A stretch of DNA of 64,000 nucleotides. Origin: Cyanobacteria bacterium P01_A01_bin.123 (GTDB lineage Bacteria > Cyanobacteriota > Cyanobacteriia > Phormidesmidales > Phormidesmidaceae). The notes beneath the pieces are model-generated. The model worked only from the letters and a program-made list of their open reading frames with translations, had not been told where the DNA came from and did not search any database. How positions within the stretch are numbered: position 1 is the stretch's first letter; every line of letters starts with the position of its first letter. Below, in pieces: positions 45,524-61,331 of the stretch. Made by a program: the position numbers and the translations under genes. The stretch is taken from contig JBCBZT010000012.1 in the NCBI GenBank assembly GCA_039815185.1, positions 121,313 to 185,312 of the forward strand. Reading direction: 5' to 3'.

Positions 45524-46372
45524 ATGAAACACAAAAGACTCAAGCACATTTTAGGAGTCATGTCTGTCGCGACTTGCTTGGTGGCCGCCTCCGGGGGGAA
45601 TGCCCACGCAATTCGGATTGATTTCGACGAAGCAGAACTACCCGGTTATGGCGTGGACATCACCGATCAATTGCAAGCCGAATACGGTTTGACCCTAAGT
45701 GCCTCAAACAAAAACAATCGTAATAGTTCCAAAGATCTGTGGTTGTACAACTCCAGTTGCGATCCCTCTGGTGGTTGTGTCGGCGGCGACCCTGACCTAG
45801 CCACGGGTACAGGGTCTTACAACCATAATGGTTGGAAAATTCGGTACAACACCCCCGATCAAGGCAATGTCTTGATTGTTCAAGAAAACAACCACACGCC
45901 AGATGACGATGCTGGTGGCGGTTGGATTAACTTTGACTTCGATCAAGCCATCGACTTTCGCAATATCGCCTTGTTGGATTTAGACGACGGCGAAGATCCG
46001 AAATTTGAGTTTACTTTTGCCAACGGGGCAACTCACGAATGGACCTTCTCCGACAACGACGACGAAGTCAGCTTTGTTCGGGATAATGAGAACAAAAATT
46101 GGTCGTCTAAGGAAACCAAAGATGGTGAAACGACCCGGAAAAACGAGAACAATTCTCTAAGAGAATATGATTTCTCGGGCCTCAGCGACGATGAACACGA
46201 CTTCACCCAGGTGACAGGGTTTGGCGTACGACTGCCTAGTAGTGGCGCTGTGGCTTACCTAGAGTACTTCCGCGAAGTTGAAGAGCCGAATGTCAAAGTA
46301 CCTGAACCGGCTTCACTGCTGGGGCTAGCTGCCGTCGGCATGTTTGGTTATCGTCTAAAGCGCAAGCGCTAG
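45524..46372 (+). CDS. PEP-CTERM secreted protein, Asp/Asn-rich
   Basis: Signal peptide; C-terminal VPEPASLLGLAAVGMFGYRLKRKR. Confidence 0.85.
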   Translation: MKHKRLKHILGVMSVATCLVAASGGNAHAIRIDFDEAELPGYGVDITDQLQAEYGLTLSASNKNNRNSSKDLWLYNSSCDPSGGCVGGDPDLATGTGSYNHNGWKIRYNTPDQGNVLIVQENNHTPDDDAGGGWINFDFDQAIDFRNIALLDLDDGEDPKFEFTFANGATHEWTFSDNDDEVSFVRDNENKNWSSKETKDGETTRKNENNSLREYDFSGLSDDEHDFTQVTGFGVRLPSSGAVAYLEYFREVEEPNVKVPEPASLLGLAAVGMFGYRLKRKR

Positions 46373-46419: not shown

Positions 46420-46526
46420 CGCTGGCCAGATTGCTTAATGCACCTAGTATCGCTGGGGTGCTGAACACACAAGCAATCTGGCTTGCCGTAGCGGTAGCGC
46501 ACAAAGCTTTGTGGCTACGGCTATAC
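46420..46526. repeat. Dispersed palindromic repeat, copy B
   Basis: Aligns by eye with 1006-1107. Confidence 0.8.
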
Positions 46527-47000
46527 ATTTTGCAAACTGTGAAAAAGGTGGCCGGGGGTGATTTTGGTGCAGCCTGCTTCGGTTGCGACCCAATAGAGAA
46601 TGCCCCGCCGCAATCGTGAGTATAGACCACACAGGGTTTTGCCAGCAGGAATAATCCGCGTTACGGTGCTGTAGGTGTCGGCTTCGACAATTCGATAAGG
46701 GACGCCGATGGACTGCAAATAATTGGGCAAGACATGGGTAGGGAAACCCGGTTGTTTTTGATCAAGATTAAATGCCAGCAACTCAAATTCAATGGGAGCC
46801 CGACGTTGCAAATCTGATAGCAGATCAAGCAGGGTATAGGAATCTTTTCCACCCGAGAGACAAACCATGACGCGATCGCCTGCGGTGATCAGACCATAAT
46901 CTGCGATCGCCCGATCCACCAACCCCCGCAGTTTTGTCGCTAACTTTTGGGTTACCCGCCTATTCAAAGCTTGAGATGATTGTACCGGAGGACTGTCCAT
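46521..47000 (-). pseudogene. ttcA: Truncated tRNA 2-thiocytidine synthetase TtcA
   Basis: [28 protein letters not shown]; CxxC degraded to CGLY; ends at KITPGH next to repeat copy B. Confidence 0.8.
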
Positions 47001-52466: not shown

Positions 52467-52733
52467 TTAAGGAAAAAAGCGATAAATCTTTTTACGGTGG
52501 AGAAACCGTACAAGTATGATTTCGTCACCCATCATTTTAATACCAACTCTAAAGTTGCCGATTCGGATTCGATAGAAGTCATCGTATCCCTTCAACTTTG
52601 AAACATTAGAAACTTGAGGCAAAGATTCAGATGCTTTACGCTGCTCAATCACAGTACTGATCTGAAACAGAAGGTTTGGATCTTTCAGGCGTTTCAAGTC
52701 TTTCTTAAAGCTGCTTCTGAATCGAACTTTCAC
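52467..52733 (-). CDS. RelE/ParE family toxin
   Basis: SFKKDLKRL, KLKGYDDFYRIRIGNFRVG, LHRKKIYRFFP. Confidence 0.85.
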   Translation of the reverse strand: MKVRFRSSFKKDLKRLKDPNLLFQISTVIEQRKASESLPQVSNVSKLKGYDDFYRIRIGNFRVGIKMMGDEIILVRFLHRKKIYRFFP

Positions 52734-52936
52734 GCTTTACCTTGCAGGATAGCTTGGATATCTGCTTCATCCACAAATTCGGTTGCTTCGCCTTCAAGGA
52801 TGGCGTTGGCTAATCCAACTTCTTCTAAGGCATCAAGGACGATTTCATAGAAGACCTCTCGTTTTTGCTGAAGCATTTCTACGAGAACCTCGGTAAGCAG
52901 TGCTTTCATGGCTTCGTTGTCTGAGGTTAGTTGCAT
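52730..52936 (-). CDS. Putative antitoxin
   Basis: Acidic 68 aa (DALEEVGLANAILEGEATEFVDEADI); GTGA overlap with the toxin. Confidence 0.75.
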   Translation of the reverse strand: MQLTSDNEAMKALLTEVLVEMLQQKREVFYEIVLDALEEVGLANAILEGEATEFVDEADIQAILQGKA

Positions 52937-53095
52937 AGCTTTTTGCAAGGAGAGTATGGTTTTAGGATAGCTGAGATTTTCGGAGCATTTCTGTGGGGCA
53001 GATTTTGAAGTGCAGTTTGTGACGATGTTCAATGATTGCTGGCTAAACCTGTTCGTATGGGGATGGTTTCATAGTACTGATTGATAGTCTGCGAT

Positions 53096-53184
53096 CGCTG
53101 CTTGAGCTAATACTTCTAATTTGCCGCCTGCAATGTCACGTGTGAGCTGCTCGTCCCAGCGTTTGTAGTCTAAGTCGAAAAACC
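53096..53184 (-). repeat. 89-bp diverged direct repeat (3' part of a small antitoxin-like gene)
   Basis: Colinear with 55331-55419; encodes FFDLDYKRWDEQLTRDIAGGKLEVLAQA; abuts perfect palindrome 53183-53212. Confidence 0.8.
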
Positions 53185-53247: not shown

Positions 53248-55134
53248 TTAGCGTTGACGCTTTAACCCCAACACCGATGCCCCAGCCACAACCAAAGCGG
53301 CTACCGCGCCAGGTTCAGGCACAGATGCAGGCGCTGCCGAACCATCGGCATTGGTGATTAACCTGAGCTGATCGCCATAGACGCGACGCTCAGTACCAAG
53401 CACGTTGTAGTTGCTGTCGAGCAGCGGAAAGCTATAAACCGGCGTGAAGATCACCTCAGCAGAACCGTCGTTTCTGCGTTCCAGATTGACCTCCAAGTGG
53501 CCGTAGTGCTTGCCCCCCTCAACCAACTGCAAGACGCCATCCACTTCTTGCCACAGTTCGGGTTCATCTTGGTCGGCAGTCCACTGGCTAAAAGCGTTGT
53601 ACCCCAGTGGCTGATCATTGTCATCGCGGATTTCACCCCGGAGCCCGTCACCGGCAACGCCGACGTCGTAATACTGGACGCCCATACCGTCGCCGTCTAG
53701 ATCGACAAAGCTGCGTTCAAACATTTCACTATGGCCCGACAAAACCGCCAGCACACCATACGCTTCAAACAAGGGCTGATACTGACGTAAGGGCGTACCC
53801 CCCTGACCGCTAGAAAGCTCATGGTTCATGGGGAAACCATGGGTGCCGCTAGAGTAGGGAGCATGGTGGAATTGCACAAAGATGATTTGCCCTTGGGTGC
53901 GGGCATCGTCTAACTGATCGATCACCCAATTCCATTGGGGGCTACCGGGGTTGAAGTCGGCTAAGTCAGTACCGCCAGCAGCTTCGTATTGCTCACGGGT
54001 GTAGTTTTGCTGGGTGTCAGTCCCTGGCCCGGTAAAGTCCAACCCGCTGATTTTTGGGGGTTGACCTTCCTCGCCATAGTTATCGCGGCTGTCGTCGGGT
54101 TCGCCATTGGAGCTGTCTAGGGTTAAGACGGTGATCGGCCCGTAGTCGATGCGGTAGTAGTTGTCTTGGTGTTCGGGGGTGCCGTTTTCGGGCGCATCGA
54201 AATACGTGTGGAACTTATCGCGACCAAACTTAGGCCCAAAACGACCGTCGGCGTCGATGCCGTACCCGCCGTTGAGGGCGCCAAAGTTTTCCCAGTTGCC
54301 CAGGGCTGGCAGCAGCGGATACTCAGACAAACCACTGTCAAATTCCCCCGCATTGTGACGGAAGAACTCATCCCAACCGGGTTGATAACCGCCGCCCTGC
54401 ATTAGATCACCCGGCATCATCAGGAAGTCTGGATTGCGGCTATTGATGATGGCCAGGTTGTTGGCATAGCCTTCGGTTTCGGTTAGGGCATATTGCAGGC
54501 GAGTCCCCGTAGTGCCAAAGGTCTCAGCCCATTGACTATTGACGGGGTCGGGTCGGGCTTCGGAGCCACTAGCCAGTGCGCCTTGCTGCCAATCACGACG
54601 AGTGACACGACCCGAGGGTTGAGTTTCACTATCAGAGAGGGCAATGAAGCGAATGTTGTCCCAGTCATCTGCGGTGGGTGCCGTCTTAAAGGTGGAATTA
54701 AAAACGCTGCCGCCGACGCTAACGGAATAGTCATAGGTCGTATTGGGCAGCAGTCCCCGCACGTCAACGGTGTATTTGTAGTTCTCGTTATTCAACAGCC
54801 AAGAACCGGGGTCAAGCCCTTCAATTTCTTGGGTTTGCTCGGCAGTGGTGTAAGCCAAGAGCGGTTCTAAAGACGGCGTGCTGTTGAATACCAGCGGGTC
54901 ACTCAACGTTGACCCGGTAAGGGTGAGGGTGGCGGGCTGGTTGGTTTCGGCGAACCAGGTAAAGGCCATACCATCGGCAGAGGGTTGTTGTAGATAGGGG
55001 TTAACCCGGAAGCTGGCTGCTTGGGTAGGGGCGGCAAACAGGTTAATGACGATTGGCAGGAGGATAGCGCTGCCGAGGGTTGCTTTGGAGTTGAGCATCA
55101 TGACTACGGGGGTGGAACCTTTAGATCGGTACAT
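53248..55134 (-). CDS. PEP-CTERM purple acid phosphatase-like metallophosphoesterase
   Basis: FN3-like N domain; LSDSE, PGDL, LGNWE, FHHAPY, SGHSE; C-terminal VPEPGAVAALVVAGASVLGLKRQR. Confidence 0.85.
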   Translation of the reverse strand: MYRSKGSTPVVMMLNSKATLGSAILLPIVINLFAAPTQAASFRVNPYLQQPSADGMAFTWFAETNQPATLTLTGSTLSDPLVFNSTPSLEPLLAYTTAEQTQEIEGLDPGSWLLNNENYKYTVDVRGLLPNTTYDYSVSVGGSVFNSTFKTAPTADDWDNIRFIALSDSETQPSGRVTRRDWQQGALASGSEARPDPVNSQWAETFGTTGTRLQYALTETEGYANNLAIINSRNPDFLMMPGDLMQGGGYQPGWDEFFRHNAGEFDSGLSEYPLLPALGNWENFGALNGGYGIDADGRFGPKFGRDKFHTYFDAPENGTPEHQDNYYRIDYGPITVLTLDSSNGEPDDSRDNYGEEGQPPKISGLDFTGPGTDTQQNYTREQYEAAGGTDLADFNPGSPQWNWVIDQLDDARTQGQIIFVQFHHAPYSSGTHGFPMNHELSSGQGGTPLRQYQPLFEAYGVLAVLSGHSEMFERSFVDLDGDGMGVQYYDVGVAGDGLRGEIRDDNDQPLGYNAFSQWTADQDEPELWQEVDGVLQLVEGGKHYGHLEVNLERRNDGSAEVIFTPVYSFPLLDSNYNVLGTERRVYGDQLRLITNADGSAAPASVPEPGAVAALVVAGASVLGLKRQR

Positions 55135-55318
55135 ACACGGACATATGGTTTGCAGAATACGATCTGCAAATTAAGCGGTGTACAACCTAGCGTTAAACTC
55201 CCTTAAGCTAGGGGTGGCTTCCTATGTTGTTAGCTGTTGTCATGTTTTGGCGCAGACCCCAGGGGTCTTGCCCGCCATAGTCTTAAATATCAGGGCTTAA
55301 AGCAGAACCCTGGGATCT

Positions 55319-55492
55319 TTAACCCTGTAGCGCTGCTTGAGCTAATGCTTCTAACTTGCGGTCTGTAATGTCACGGGCGAGCTGTTCGTTCCAACGTTCG
55401 TAGTCTAAGTCGAAAAACCACTGTCTGAGCTTTTCAAAGTCGTGGGATGAGAGTGAGCGGATGGCGGCTTCGATTTGCTCGATGGTTGACAT
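55319..55492 (-). CDS. Small putative antitoxin-like protein (57 aa, possibly 3'-truncated)
   Basis: MSTIEQIEAAIRSLSSHDFEKLRQWFFDLDYERWNEQLARDITDRKLEALAQAALQG; starts 6 bp after the caspase gene stop. Confidence 0.6.
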   Translation of the reverse strand: MSTIEQIEAAIRSLSSHDFEKLRQWFFDLDYERWNEQLARDITDRKLEALAQAALQG

Positions 55493-55498
55493 GAATAT

Positions 55499-58400
55499 CT
55501 ATTCTTCAATGTTTGGTACTGTGCCGAGAAATGTTATTAGGAAACTAATAATTATTATCGAGGATAAAGGAACAGTAACTGGAAGGAGCAGGCCATACCA
55601 AGCAAACAGTAGAAATGAGAACCCAACAAACAATAGAGACGAAGAAACGCCAATGATTACACCTTTAAGTCTACTTTTTCGAGCGATTACATATTCTACG
55701 TATCCAAAGCTAAATACTATAATTATAATAAAAGCCCCTTCGAGATAAGAATTTTGGAATACAGGATTCAGACTTGTTCCGTATAGGATAGAGCTTATAT
55801 CGTTGGCAAGGACTTCAACTCCATGCATTCCTGAGAATGGGGTTGGATGAAAATCTCCGTGCAAGTCCGCTGTACTTCCTATCAGCACTATCTTATCCCT
55901 AAAATAATCGCCTGATTGCAGTTCGTTTTCCCAAGAATATGAATCAAAAATTTTCCAAAAGGGAACATGCTCAAATGTCTCGCCTGGACCGTAAAAAAAT
56001 ATATTTCTTTGGTACTCTTCGTAGTCACTTATTTGTGCGGCTTTGAGGGTTGCCAAAGAAAAACTGTTTATTTCCGATATTGTTTTTGATTGGCCCTCTT
56101 CATTGAAATTTGCTAAATTTTGAATGCTTAGTATAAAGGTAGAGCCGTTTCTATGTATTCTTCCATCTTCCTCAACATCAAAACCTATAGAACCTAGTTG
56201 AATAGGAGTTTCAAGAAAAGAAGAAATTGGTAGAACAGCACGATAACTGTTTTCCTTTCGCGATATAGAGGTAGCCAATACAACTTGATCCCCCATGCGA
56301 TTCAATACTTCTACCAAAGTTTTGTCATCTTCAGGGCCATAGGTACTAGGGGAACGAAGAACTATATCCAAAGCTACTGATTTTGCTCCAGAGTGTATTA
56401 GTCTTTCAATAGCTATTGCATATGCCTCGCGACGGTAAGGCCACTGATTTATGACATTAAAATCTGGATTTTCCGACTCTTGAAAAAGATTCTGGTAATT
56501 TAATGAATTGTCAATTGCAAGGATGACAATATCTTCTGGGGGAGCTACAGGGCCTCTGAGTTCAAAGAATAAGGTTCGGAGGCTCAAATCGGATAAGCTT
56601 AAAAATGATGGATTTAATAACGAAATAAAACCTCCTATAAGTGAGGTTATAAATATTCCTAGCTTTAGATACCTATCTTTTCTATGATTCTTAAAGATTG
56701 CCTCTATGCTTTCCTTTAAAAAAAGTTCTGTGGTATGATTTATAGAGAACCATTCATAATATGTTTTGTATATTTTTTCTAAGAGTAGAACTTCTTTTTC
56801 CTCTAGTAAAAGTTGCTTGAGCTTGCCTCTTCTTAACCATATGTTAGCTGTCACCTCAAGATGGCGCTTGTAAATCAGTATTCTTCTAGCTTCATCTATC
56901 CATTTACGTAGCAAAGACCAATGATGTATGAGAGCTTCATGCGTTAAATCTATTACAGCAATATGACCGTTGCTGTCGCTACCTATGTCATGAACTAGCG
57001 AATTGGTAATGATTAAGTTGGCATCGGCAAGGTGTTTGACAACATCATTAACGAGCGCTTCTGAATGTTGAGTTGTAATCAAACTTCGTTTTTTGATACG
57101 GCGTCGTGTATCCTCTGCTCCTTCCCCCAAATGGGTCAGACTCAGAAAAATGTGTTTCGCCGTGCGTTGCTGGGCCGGGGTGAGCTGCTGATAGACTTTG
57201 TCGGCCCGCTGCTTCAACGTTCCAGTGACGCCGCCCAACTGGGCATAAGGGGTAAGGCGTAGGGTGTCATCCTGGCGTTGCTGCCACAGTTCAGTCAGCG
57301 TGTATTGCAATAGCGGTAAGCTGCCGGGGGCTTTTTCCACATCGTTCAGCAGCGTCGTCACCAGTTCGGGTTCCAGCGTCAGCCCCACTTGCTCAGCCGG
57401 TTTGACGATCGCATCCCGCAGCTCCTCCCGGCCCATCGGCTTCACCGCCACCAGATGGTTTTGCACCTGTTCAGCCAAACCGCTATAAGTTTGCTCAAAA
57501 CACCGCCCCACAAAATCGGCCCGCATGGCCAAAATCACGCCAAGCTGATTTGCCGTAGTGTTTAACGCCCCCAACACCGTCGCCAAAAACCGCTCCCGTT
57601 CCGCCACATCCTGGCACAGGGTAAACACCTCTTCAAACTGGTCAATCACCAGCAATACTCGTGGTGATTCAGCGGTTTGCACCAGTCGTCGCAGCCCTGC
57701 TGCGCCTTCGTTAATCAGCGCTTCGGCTTTGCCCTGCTGCTCTGCCCGCTCCACCCGCGACAGATTCTCGTCAATAAAAGCTGCCGCTAAATTTTGACAG
57801 GGCGTTTCCCCCGGCACCATCAGCCGGACTTCCCACTGATCGCTGCCAAAGATCCGCCGACCCACCCGCAGTTGGTGCAGCAATCCCGCCCGCAACACGG
57901 ACGATTTGCCACTACCCGACGCCCCAGCAATAGCCACAAAATTAGACTGGCGAACAGCGTCGAGTAGTTCATCGGTCAACGACTGGCGACCGTAGAAATA
58001 GCGATAGTCTTCGTTGTTGTTGTCAAAGTAAGACAGTCCCTTGTAGGGGCAAATGGCATTGTCTGTCTTCGCCGTTTCAGGGGCTGCCGCTGCTGCCTGT
58101 TGCCAGGCCCGCGTCAGGTTAATCGGTTCCCCAGCGTTGTTGCACACCGGGGTTTGAATTTCGGTTTTGAGGGTTTCGTTAATAAAATCCGTCAGGGATA
58201 GGTTAGTCACCCAGCGATCGCGCAACCGAGTCGGCTCCAACCCGTCCAATAGCGCCTGGGTTAAAACGCTATGGTTCCCGGTAGTTTCTTCATAGGCGGG
58301 TTCATAGGCTCTAGAAGCGGCGATGAAACTGCGATCGCGGGCCAAAGCGCGATCGCCCGGATCGGCCTCCCCAAAGCTCAACAGTTCCCCACTATGACAA

Positions 58401-58825
58401 CAATCCAGCCAAATAATCTGCTGTCGTACCGGGCTTTCTGCCAACAACCGCCGCAGCCAGCGCAACGACAACCCCCAAAAATCCTGCTGCGGGTTGACAT
58501 CGCTAGTTGCCAAGTACCCCTCAGCAATCCCTAGCGTTTCTCGCAACCCATGGCCCGAAAAATATAGCAGCGCGGTATCGGCATATTTGTCGCTGTTCGG
58601 CTTAAACAACTTCACCAGCGCCTGCTTCAACTCGGCAAGCGAAACCGCCGTTCGCTGACCGACCGTAGGCTTGCCATCAATCACTACCTCCGGCAACCGC
58701 CACACCCGAAACTCGCCATCTTTTTCAAGCCGTTGGGCGATCGCTTCGGCATCATTGCCAGGGGTTTTGAGATGGGGGATATGCTGATAAGTATCAACCC
58801 CAACCACCAATGCATCTCGCCCCAT
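55499..58825 (-). CDS. Caspase-family peptidase + nSTAND1 NTPase + TM + CHASE2 + three TM
   Basis: YFSGHG and WLDCCHSG dyad; CPYKGL..FYGR, GASGSGKSS, IDQFEE, MRADF, LPLLQ; IVILAID, WP..R, DKIVLIG, GVEVLA. Confidence 0.88.
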   Translation of the reverse strand: MGRDALVVGVDTYQHIPHLKTPGNDAEAIAQRLEKDGEFRVWRLPEVVIDGKPTVGQRTAVSLAELKQALVKLFKPNSDKYADTALLYFSGHGLRETLGIAEGYLATSDVNPQQDFWGLSLRWLRRLLAESPVRQQIIWLDCCHSGELLSFGEADPGDRALARDRSFIAASRAYEPAYEETTGNHSVLTQALLDGLEPTRLRDRWVTNLSLTDFINETLKTEIQTPVCNNAGEPINLTRAWQQAAAAAPETAKTDNAICPYKGLSYFDNNNEDYRYFYGRQSLTDELLDAVRQSNFVAIAGASGSGKSSVLRAGLLHQLRVGRRIFGSDQWEVRLMVPGETPCQNLAAAFIDENLSRVERAEQQGKAEALINEGAAGLRRLVQTAESPRVLLVIDQFEEVFTLCQDVAERERFLATVLGALNTTANQLGVILAMRADFVGRCFEQTYSGLAEQVQNHLVAVKPMGREELRDAIVKPAEQVGLTLEPELVTTLLNDVEKAPGSLPLLQYTLTELWQQRQDDTLRLTPYAQLGGVTGTLKQRADKVYQQLTPAQQRTAKHIFLSLTHLGEGAEDTRRRIKKRSLITTQHSEALVNDVVKHLADANLIITNSLVHDIGSDSNGHIAVIDLTHEALIHHWSLLRKWIDEARRILIYKRHLEVTANIWLRRGKLKQLLLEEKEVLLLEKIYKTYYEWFSINHTTELFLKESIEAIFKNHRKDRYLKLGIFITSLIGGFISLLNPSFLSLSDLSLRTLFFELRGPVAPPEDIVILAIDNSLNYQNLFQESENPDFNVINQWPYRREAYAIAIERLIHSGAKSVALDIVLRSPSTYGPEDDKTLVEVLNRMGDQVVLATSISRKENSYRAVLPISSFLETPIQLGSIGFDVEEDGRIHRNGSTFILSIQNLANFNEEGQSKTISEINSFSLATLKAAQISDYEEYQRNIFFYGPGETFEHVPFWKIFDSYSWENELQSGDYFRDKIVLIGSTADLHGDFHPTPFSGMHGVEVLANDISSILYGTSLNPVFQNSYLEGAFIIIIVFSFGYVEYVIARKSRLKGVIIGVSSSLLFVGFSFLLFAWYGLLLPVTVPLSSIIIISFLITFLGTVPNIEE

Positions 58826-58951
58826 GGCCTCGCCCCCTCAATTTGCCATTGCTGGATAGTGACAGCTTACAGGGTAGCCAATCAGCTCTCGTCACGCATC
58901 GATACAATCAAAGCAACCCGCCCGAGACACAGCCTAATACTGAATCAACCC

Positions 58952-59602
58952 ATGCTCCCCACCATTACCCCCACCCAAATCGACATCCCCCCCGGCGGAG
59001 AAGTCATCCTGCGCCACCAAACCTGGGATGACTACGAAGCGCTACTCCACACTCGCGCCGACAAAGCCGCCATCAAAATCACATTCAACGCCGCCACCCA
59101 AGAGATTCGGTTAATGTCTCCCCTCCCCAGACACGGCAAAGTATCTGCAACCCTAACCGATTTGGTCAAGAGCTTACTCCGATTTCAAGCCTACGACTGG
59201 GAAAGCTTTGACCCAATCACACTCAAGCGCTTTCAACAAAAAGGACTCGAACCCGATCACTGCTTCTATATTCAAAACCGAGCCGCAATTTTGGGTAAAG
59301 AACGGATTGACCTGGATAGTGATCCACCCCCTGACCTGGTGCTTGAAGTTGATTTGACATCTTTGACCGATATTCAAGACTACGAAGATATTGGGGTCCC
59401 TGAAGTTTGGATTTACCGGGCGCGATCGCTCCAGATTTATCAATTCGACGGCCAACACTATCAAGAACAAGAGAATAGCCCCCACTTTCCCCAAATTGAC
59501 CTCAAGCAAATCATCCCAACCTACGTAGAGCAAGCTTGGCTAGAAGGGTCAAGTGTGACCTGGCGGGCCTTTGAACAATATCTAAACGAGATCAAAAACT
59601 AA
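58952..59602 (+). CDS. Uma2 family endonuclease
   Basis: TWDDYEALL, MSPLPRH, GLEPDHCFYIQN, PPPDLVLEVD, GVPEVW. Confidence 0.88.
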   Translation: MLPTITPTQIDIPPGGEVILRHQTWDDYEALLHTRADKAAIKITFNAATQEIRLMSPLPRHGKVSATLTDLVKSLLRFQAYDWESFDPITLKRFQQKGLEPDHCFYIQNRAAILGKERIDLDSDPPPDLVLEVDLTSLTDIQDYEDIGVPEVWIYRARSLQIYQFDGQHYQEQENSPHFPQIDLKQIIPTYVEQAWLEGSSVTWRAFEQYLNEIKN

Positions 59603-61331
59603 GCCATCTGCGATCGCTTGCAGAATATCCTGCCGCCACTGAGCATCCGTTTTGCGATTCGTTTGCAATTCCAAAAGCCGAATCCCCGTTTGAGGCAGTG
59701 GATTAAGCCAATCAACACACTGCTCCCAGGTTTTAATCAGGCGATGCTCAACCCCATAGGTGTGACAAAGCGCAGCAAAATCAATGTTTTGAGGCGTGGC
59801 AAAAAAGGTTTCAAAGGGTGGCTCAAACTGGGCGATGGGTAACATTTCAAAGATGCCGCCGCCATTGTTGTTGATCACAATAATCGTCAGGTGGCCTTGG
59901 AGCTGCGATCGCGCCAAAAAACCATTTGTATCGTGCAACAGCGCCAAATCTCCAGTTAACAACACCGCCTGTTTGTGATGTTGGGCAATCCCCAAAGCAG
60001 TCGATAGCGTCCCGTCAATCCCGTTTGCCCCACGATTGAAATAGGGTCGAATGTGGCGATCATTGGGTTGCCAAAACCACTCCACATCCCGCACAGGCAT
60101 GCTGTTGGCAATCAATAGCGGTGTATTTTCTGGCAGATGGCGGGACAGCAACCAGGCCAATTTGCTTTCAATCGGTAAAGACAGCGCCTGAAACCTCTGA
60201 TCAAGCTGGTGGCGAAACTGATGATCAAAGCTCCGCCACAGCCTAGCGTAGGGCGTCGTTTCAGCGTTTCTTTGAGGGAACTGGGCGGCAAAGTCTTCCA
60301 CAGCGCAGGTAATCGGCATCGTGCTGCCATGGAGGGTATCTAAGTTGCGATCGCCCCCGTCAACCACCCACCGCAGTGGGTTAACCCTAGCCAACCATTG
60401 CCGCAGCACTTTGCTGGTCGGCAGCGGCCCTAGTTGTAGCACCTGCTCGGGCTTAAGCTGTGCTGCCGCATCGTCATTGCGCAAAATGCCGTCGTAAGTC
60501 GAAATCAAATACGGATTCAGTGCGGCATAGTTGCGTAACGGTGAGAGTCCCTCTGCCAGCACGGGCCAGCCTAGAGCTTGGCAGAGGTGGGCGATGGCTT
60601 GGCAGTAGTGCAGGGGGTGGGTGGGTTCGGCAGGGCCGGCGATGATCAGGCCGTGGGGGGATGGGGGGAGTGGGGGAGTGGGGGAGTGAGGGAGTGGGGG
60701 CATCTGGAGATGGACTGGATAGGGGGTGGAAGAAGGGTGTGGGGGTGAGGGTTGGGGCGATCGCGGGGGTGCTGTCATCGGCAATGGGGGGTAGTGGATC
60801 GCGGAAGGGGCAGTTGAGGTGGACTGGGCCAGGGATGGGGAGGCGCGATCGCGTCCAGGCTTGCACTAGGGTTTGGCGCAGATAGGTCAGGAGGGAGATA
60901 TCCGCTTGGGGAACAGCCAGTTCGTGGTACCAATTGGGGAAGTTACCAAACAGTTTTTGCTGATCAATGGTTTGCCCTGAGGCGCAGTCGCGTAGTTCTG
61001 GGGGGCGATCAGCAGTCAGCACGATCAATGGCACTCGACTTTCCCGTGCTTCGATCAGGGCGGGATAAAAGTTTGCGCCTGCGGTACCCGAGGTGCAGAC
61101 GAGAACCACGGGGAGGCAGGCTGCTTTGGCCAACCCCAATGCCAAGAAGCTGGCTGATCGTTCATCTAAAACGGGGATAGCTTCAACCTGGGGATGCCTG
61201 ACCAGAGCTACTGTTAGGGGGGTCGATCGAGAGCCTGGGCAGACCACGGCTTTGTTTAATCCCAACCGCACTAGGGTTTCGACCAGCACAGAGGCCCAGA
61301 GCGAGTTGGTATTACGAAAGTCGAACGTCAT
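59582..61331 (-). pseudogene. menD: MenD (SEPHCHC synthase), split by a frameshift in a repeat tract
   Basis: [35 protein letters not shown] in one frame; NSMPVRD, NRGANGIDG, GDLALLHD, NNNGGGIF in another; may be a sequencing error. Confidence 0.8.

Follow-up and report, generated by a model that had tools for sequence, protein, structure and literature searches.

A caspase-nSTAND1 gene with a CHASE2 module in its exchangeable tail in a cyanobacterial genome

Filamentous cyanobacteria commonly have caspase-STAND proteins anchored in the membrane, which predicted topology alone has led others to depict as death receptors. In a 64,000-nucleotide stretch of the genome of Cyanobacteria bacterium P01_A01_bin.123 (assembly GCA_039815185.1, contig JBCBZT010000012.1, positions 121,313 to 185,312; hereafter the window, whose own coordinates are used below), we found a gene on the minus strand (55499..58825) whose 1108-aa product joins a caspase-like domain, an nSTAND1 NTPase, a helical linker, a first transmembrane segment (TM1), a CHASE2 domain and three further transmembrane segments (TM2-4). 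The gene is a natural mosaic fusion. It belongs, as one allele, to a caspase/adaptor-nSTAND1-TM family of cyanobacteria with an exchangeable tail; to judge from sequence comparison, the usual pentapeptide tail has given way to a copied sensor of the lineage's conserved CHASE2-Ser/Thr kinase. We give roughly an even chance to the proposal that the product acts as a membrane-spanning receptor resembling NLR proteins (nucleotide-binding proteins with leucine-rich repeats), in which a CHASE2 domain predicted to lie outside would govern proteolysis in the cytoplasm. The fusion could also serve as a life-or-death readout with which to find the signals of cyanobacterial CHASE2 domains; were CHASE2 merely an anchor, the gene would still plainly illustrate how modules are shuffled among bacterial NLR-like genes.

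Architecture and domain integrity

Each of the three domains exceeded its curated Pfam cut-off. The caspase-like domain (C14, orthocaspase; aa 5-228, 58142..58813, minus strand like all parts of the gene) matched Peptidase_C14 (PF00656, E 1e-15) and had a caspase fold match, and a motif search found the dyad residues His92 and Cys142 in a p20-like domain, as in orthocaspases. The nSTAND1 module (aa 260-668, 56822..58048), comprising an NTPase core, a helical domain and a winged helix in the model, matched PF20703 (E 3e-123) with 412.5 bits against a cut-off of 27.1 and covered profile positions 1-376 of 379. Its motifs were complete, with Walker A (aa 301-308, 57902-57925), Walker B (aa 392-399, 57629-57652), a sensor-type Arg435, PLL and the winged-helix HEAL, and its fold was of the STAND type, placing it in nSTAND1 on profile, motifs and model together. 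In an alignment of 85 sequences, the caspase and NTPase motif residues fell in columns that are invariant or nearly so. A linker (aa 669-718, 56672..56821), strongly diverged from that of the family and helical in the model, connects the winged helix to TM1.

The membrane part has the layout of CHASE2 receptors, one TM before the domain and three after it, as read from hydropathy and charge. Predicted TM1 (aa ~719-742, 56600..56671) is preceded by a Lys/Arg-rich stretch. The CHASE2 domain (aa 734-1037, 55715..56626; PF05226, E 4e-35) is predicted to be extracytoplasmic and is of the CHASE2-Ser/Thr kinase type by its matches, tree and model. Three predicted helices follow (aa ~1030-1048, 1056-1076 and 1080-1100; 55526..55738), their limits, like those of TM1, coming from hydropathy only. 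Eight residues remain after TM4 and there is no kinase domain, so that the protein has the sensor module alone in common with CHASE2-Ser/Thr kinases, in which the kinase follows TM4. A preliminary description of this gene had reported the intact caspase dyad, the complete nSTAND1 module, the TM-CHASE2-three TM order and the stop after the last TM; Pfam, motif and hydropathy analyses confirmed all of these. An intact dyad is no proof of proteolytic activity (PMC5756287). Against the NCBIfam model caspase_w_EACC1 the protein scored 96 bits, below the cut-off of 140, and the neighbouring genes, Uma2 and an antitoxin-like remnant, include no EACC1.

Lys/Arg clusters lie upstream of TM1 and in the TM2-TM3 loop, a pattern that fits an N-in, CHASE2-out arrangement. 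We infer that the caspase and NTPase would lie inside and that CHASE2 would face the periplasm or perhaps the lumen of the thylakoid, and the TMHMM topology published for a Trichodesmium caspase-CHASE2 protein agrees with this layout (PMC3501461). The AlphaFold model of the front half (mean predicted local distance difference test score, pLDDT, 86.7) resembled Orc1/Cdc6, NB-ARC, Apaf-1 and CED-4 (E 1e-10 to 1e-6) as well as Avs4, and its caspase part matched MALT1 and yeast metacaspase folds. The CHASE2-4TM half, modelled with pLDDT 90.0, resembled no solved structure clearly (best E 0.02 with Foldseek; best Z 7.4 with VIA-align, to helical bundles), which does not demonstrate a new fold, and phmmer, run with the full-length protein on PDB sequences, found no match.

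A mosaic breakpoint inside the winged helix

The G+C content at third codon positions (GC3) dropped from 0.63 to 0.294 inside the nSTAND1 winged helix, with the best point at codon 567 and a log-likelihood gain of 64, compared with at most 9.6 in 200 shuffles. A GC3 as low as that of the AT-rich half was seen in 0.3% of 2533 long open frames of the genome. Related contigs in runs X4 and X5 agree with the window down to 57102 and carry other sequence beyond it, which points to an exchange at that same position. From the GC3 step and these contigs we placed the mosaic breakpoint, a putative recombination point, at codons ~555-580 (57086..57163).

A sharp step in base composition is also what would be expected if the assembly had wrongly joined a GC-rich to an AT-rich contig, an objection raised in the preliminary description. 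Contig depth was lower across the AT-rich half in both X2 and X3, and the contamination estimate for the genome is 6%; X4 contigs covered the CHASE2 half scarcely or not at all, to which we attach no weight. Against such a chimera, single contigs from further samples of the same single study (contigs, not reads) cross the breakpoint with 0 differences (X2, 56772-57647; X3, 56867-57647), the step falls within one continuous nSTAND1 profile match, and the same domain layout occurs in unrelated records. An assembly chimera is therefore exceedingly improbable; the drop in depth could be due to GC bias or to alternative tails. The AT-rich half is open over 541 codons, where its base make-up predicts a stop every 15 (chance ~1e-17), and its other two frames hold 52 and 37 stops. 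HIP1 sites numbered 4 and 0 in the two halves, counts too small to carry weight.

Other caspase/adaptor-nSTAND1 genes (L009, L015/L044 and G000:C94:156750-159173) likewise have GC3 steps within them or a low GC3 all along, which suggests that mosaicism is general in the family.

A receptor family with an exchangeable tail

The host genome carries six strong nSTAND1 genes, and of the five paralogues of the fusion, two carry terminal pentapeptide repeats and the others WD40 or tails that are short or unassigned. Among the best 150 representatives from 1.84 billion proteins, CHASE2 was present in two (P0005 and P0253). A TM-like segment lay between nSTAND1 and the tail in 93 of the 127 relatives that could be scored (the other 23 lacked an anchor motif); within the pentapeptide subfamily it was present in 76/83, with an excess of Lys/Arg before relative to after it in 78/83. 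With a TM behind the NTPase in most relatives, spanning the membrane is usual for the family, and CHASE2 is seldom found in its variable tail slot. The expectation that such relatives usually end in cytoplasmic repeats consequently did not hold, and CASPASE+nSTAND1+TM+BetaPropeller proteins had already been catalogued (Kaur 2021, PMC8195603). Tails found at the slot in 45 scanned proteins included WD40, pentapeptide, TPR, FGE-sulfatase, GUN4, Reg_prop and Cas_APE2256, a variety expected of a sensor slot.

The nearest relatives of the fusion protein have a tail of TM plus pentapeptide repeats, and in each fusion the identity to pentapeptide-tailed relatives collapsed past the winged helix. No match spanning both halves was found in 40 relatives, in 172 other family genomes (best 150 of 155 matches, up to 8 candidates scored per genome) or, in a weak test with 3 candidates scored per genome, in 400 genomes of the phylum. 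Fused CHASE2 was likewise absent from 80+80 loci fetched with P0253, as searched with a kinase-type CHASE2 profile that may miss other types. The architecture is rare, with CHASE2 in 2/150 best representatives and no spanning match among the genome candidates scored. Named protein matches came from Leptolyngbya-like filamentous forms.

Several caspase-nSTAND1 proteins had other unusual tails (P0360, P0337, P0303 and P0250/P0266/P0304/P0322/P0334), comprising Cas_APE2256, Reg_prop, a domain like that of phycobilisome proteins and a TM-linked tail that recurs and matches no Pfam family.

Source and repeated capture of the CHASE2 module

A search with the CHASE2 half returned CHASE2-Ser/Thr kinases in 119 of the 120 matches listed, and donor-type kinases were 40-47% identical to the CHASE2 module of the fusion. 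The junction query matched 139/173 family genomes (among the matches listed), nearly always through its CHASE2 half and in open reading frames (ORFs) of kinase length, and a donor-type CHASE2 kinase is intact in the host genome (contig C113). The fusion retains TM1-CHASE2-TM2-4 and drops the kinase. P0005, which is 46% identical to the window protein over its length, and P0253/P0387/P0388 do likewise; P0253 has, where the caspase would be, a 75-residue N-terminal domain with no Pfam match. A ~70-residue N-terminal domain without Pfam match also heads nSTAND1 proteins at L046:5965-9954, L015/L044 and L034 and recurs in a downstream TIR protein (L046:10994-12034). The copy of the P0253-type domain fused to TIR in L046 suggests that it may be an undescribed effector-associated adaptor.

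For each fusion the nearest NTPase kin is a different pentapeptide-tailed protein: L002 for the window protein (78%), P0122 for P0005 (94%) and L044 for P0253. Approximately unbiased (AU) tests under LG+G4 rejected a single NTPase clade for the window protein and P0005 (p 4e-47) and for the window protein, P0253 and P0387 (p 2e-65; 33 rows, quick search). For CHASE2, a single clade was rejected for the window protein and P0005 (p 4e-21; 50 of 128 rows), and the three modules stood in three separate places of the CHASE2 tree. The NTPase rejections and CHASE2 tests together point to three joinings with at least two captures of CHASE2. That CHASE2, annotated elsewhere as an extracellular sensor, sits repeatedly in the tail slot supports an outward-facing slot and a STAND that can be driven across the membrane.

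The captured modules have diverged unevenly. The window protein kept 60/71 highly conserved, 51/81 medium and 31/144 variable CHASE2 columns; P0005 and P0253 followed the same gradient, and in all three 77-86% of columns in the highly conserved class were retained, together with about one-fifth of those in the variable class. As judged from these alignments, the fusion was shown to be under purifying selection. The P0253 type spans three 90% clusters at 76-82% identity.

A recurrent capture of this kind could mean that CHASE2 serves as an integrated decoy or guard, baiting invader proteins aimed at the cell's own CHASE2 kinase or its periplasmic partner. Plant NLRs with integrated domains provide a parallel. 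We consider this unlikely, though several observations fit it: the donor kinase is matched in most family genomes and still intact in the host; capture recurred and the kinase was lost every time; the gene is missing from some co-occurring strains; CHASE2 end branches in the three fusions (1.19, 0.83 and 0.40) exceed those of the nearest kinases (0.13-0.3); and P0253 and P0387 are 95% identical in the NTPase and 85% in the last three TMs but 74% in CHASE2. Yet relaxed constraint would also yield fast change, and in ordinary kinases, too, CHASE2 changes more quickly than the kinase domain. We know of no attacker of CHASE2 proteins. The broader proposition, that nSTAND1 receptors repeatedly capture a host-kinase ectodomain as an outside decoy and that the STAND is fired across the bilayer, which would make them transmembrane death receptors and a bacterial counterpart of plant integrated-domain NLRs, we put forward as a tentative and rather doubtful one.

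Proposed relay and the evidence that weighs on it

In the proposed receptor, an outside event would engage CHASE2 and cause either receptor clustering or a shift of TM1 and the helical linker. The STAND switch would then be released, with nucleotide exchange and oligomerisation; the caspase domains, brought together, would be activated by proximity and cleave a substrate; and one cell of the filament would most likely be arrested or killed as a defence. We infer that a relay from STAND to caspase would be the best reading. The steps past the anatomy would follow from STAND and paracaspase biology and from the fold matches. Such a relay had been suggested in the preliminary description; the architecture proved real, rare and under selection, and the topology fits an outside sensor with an inside protease. 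The supposed norm of cytoplasmic repeats, the special status of a missing output and the partner role of a 57-aa ORF did not survive.

The host genome holds 14 other CHASE2 ORFs, three of them effector-first, and two of these three end after the last TM, as does Trichodesmium YP_720323.1, so that the lack of a C-terminal output is nothing special. The effector-first proteins are one kinase-CHASE2 and two CHAT-like-CHASE2 proteins (G000:C131:9637-11835, C113:4772-7357 and C78:21501-24221).

Several points weigh against the receptor as proposed. To our knowledge, characterised STAND receptors sense their trigger on the same side of the membrane, and our literature search found no experimental demonstration of a STAND switch driven across one. 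The output of the donor kinase follows TM4, and the fusion would need to signal through TM1. Its CHASE2 is unlike that of the genome's effector-first proteins and was matched by two C113 output-last proteins only. TM1 of P0253 is weakly hydrophobic (1.2). The CHASE2 of the window protein forms a long, compositionally odd branch, and for this module and that of P0253 the AU test is compatible with one origin (p 0.19; 36 rows). The linker is eroded: 4/12 family-conserved residues are kept over aa 661-720 and 31/47 over aa 567-660, while the front half keeps 82-88%, the alignment behind these counts being seeded from P0005 and so biased toward it. No conserved defence island or partner gene was found around the fusion, and PADLOC 2.0.0 yielded a generic caspase and a 20-residue mad3 match, and no match to a curated Avs or NACHT model.

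Some of these points would also fit a CHASE2 that merely anchors the protein without coupling to it, or that is a passenger in decay. Recombination would then have put some TM-bearing module or other behind the STAND, the real trigger would be cytoplasmic or a disturbance of the membrane, and the allele may be losing function. The eroded winged-helix and linker residues, the longest CHASE2 branch being that of the window protein, the removal of the donor's output side and the great rarity of the fusion (no spanning match in the 172 other family genomes, among the matches listed) all lean that way. We nevertheless judge it improbable given the 541 open AT-rich codons with their clear conservation gradient, the confident fold model of CHASE2 and the independent fusions, one of which is maintained across three clusters.

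Regulated proteolysis without killing was also weighed, in which an envelope or environmental cue would lead to cleavage of a regulator of development, motility or biofilm formation and the NTPase would act as a threshold switch. The CHASE2 proteins that have been characterised act in housekeeping signal transduction (Sinorhizobium cyclases, PMC13001267; Leptolyngbya Dgc2, PMC10581220), homeostatic roles have been argued for orthocaspases (PMC5756287), and effector-first CHASE2 proteins of the CHAT-CHASE2 and kinase-CHASE2 kinds are present in the host genome. The patchy presence of the gene, its loss at strain level, the lack of synteny and the rapid exchange of tails are more in keeping with a conflict gene than with a housekeeping regulator, and no sigma factor or DUF928-type neighbour was found among the flanking ORFs. 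This non-lethal role seems to us a poor prospect beside the receptor that would arrest or kill the cell.

Comparison with known systems

The closest framework is that of the nSTAND1 conflict proteins, defined by Kaur 2021, who list many CASPASE+nSTAND1+TM proteins (PMC8195603). The window protein shares with them the NTPase clade, an N-terminal effector or adaptor, a TM behind the NTPase and a variable tail. One listed protein, RQW03303.1 of a KSB1 bacterium (828 aa), has nSTAND1+TM+CHASE2+TM+TM+TM and adjoins a TIR+DrHyd gene; it has the same layout from NTPase to CHASE2 and differs in lacking a caspase (PMC8195603). Within the source data files searched, CHASE2 was found in the RQW03303.1 record alone, and neither kinase capture nor repeated origin was seen. 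The window gene has no EACC1 or EAD partner.

Trichodesmium erythraeum IMS101 YP_720323.1, a 'putative Chase2 sensor protein' of the order caspase-TM-CHASE2-3TM (PMC2853523, PMC3501461), shares the intact caspase dyad, the TM-CHASE2-3TM part and the end after the last TM, and its authors concluded, as we do here, that the sensor lies outside and the protease inside (PMC3501461). It differs in having 783 aa, with the caspase at 23-304 and CHASE2 at 375-715, which leaves no room for a STAND module. The EACC2-caspase(CHAT)-CHASE2 proteins of TRADD-N neighbourhoods (PMC8195603) likewise have a protease of caspase fold followed by an extracellular CHASE2 and its TMs, and similar CHAT-like ORFs occur in the host genome; they have no STAND, and their conserved gene neighbours and EACC2 domain are absent from the window protein. 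In neither type is there an NTPase, whereas the window protein has an nSTAND1 module of 409 aa between protease and membrane.

Avs and bacterial NACHT proteins have the same effector-STAND-sensor order, with fold kinship to Apaf-1, CED-4, plant resistosomes and Avs4. Their described sensors are mostly repeat domains, whereas that of the window protein would lie beyond a predicted membrane span; a NACHT TM class has been predicted to sense intramembrane or periplasmic signals (Kibby preprint, 10.1101/2022.07.19.500537). In cyanobacterial CHASE2-Ser/Thr kinases CHASE2 comes first and the kinase after TM4 (PMC2176072), whereas in the fusion the effector stands before TM1. Apaf-1-like proteins with an N-terminal caspase have been noted in cyanobacteria in a paper that describes TPR and WD40 sensors of STAND receptors (PMC13581612), and a search of its supplements for CHASE2 or nSTAND1 gave no match. 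Caspase-AAA-TM-WD40 and CHASE2 proteins have been proposed as death receptors in a paper that calls the evidence lacking (PMC7475262). A literature search, with most subscription papers outside it, did not find a caspase-nSTAND1-TM-CHASE2 fusion, its kinase origin or its recurrence. The pairwise combinations were already catalogued; we did not find earlier reports of the four-part fusion or its repeated origin.

The locus, strain variation and the small ORF

The gene lies in a strain-variable segment (55291..58940). Contigs from two samples (runs X2 and X4, one study) join 55290 to 58941, with ~145 other letters at the joint and with the gene and its small downstream ORF absent; the joint was recognised at 90% likeness, a level that calls for caution, and the X4 piece differs at 2/487 bases. 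No repeats bounding the segment were found, scans for promoters and terminators gave no more than chance would, and the listed holders of the sequence included no RNA datasets.

The small ORF (57 aa, 55319-55492, minus strand) starts 6 bp after the stop of the fusion and had been put forward as a possible partner. It proved instead to be a C-terminally shortened antitoxin-like gene without a toxin. It is 62% identical to a 66-aa gene at G000:C115 that precedes and overlaps a ParE_like toxin gene; the same pair occurs in G002, so that both intact copies examined show the pairing. No homologue stood beside any other caspase-STAND gene in 212 fetched loci, whose flanks were often short, and Atlas matches were to unnamed clusters only. 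The ORF is most likely a bystander. A broken second antitoxin-like copy, 88% identical to the 57-aa ORF, lies at 53096-53184 and precedes a RelB-like antitoxin and ParE toxin pair (52467-53032, minus strand).

Other genes were noted in the window. A purple-acid-phosphatase-like metallophosphoesterase (53248-55134, minus strand) adjoins the variable segment. To the right, a gene that we take to be menD-like (59582-61331, minus strand) is split over two overlapping frames, and the shift lies in a C-rich repeat at ~60640-60690, either as a real frameshift or as an assembly slip. An ORF of 159 aa, presumably a TtcA-like tRNA thiolase (46521-47000, minus strand), appears truncated, and further left lies a PEP-CTERM protein gene (45524-46372, plus strand).

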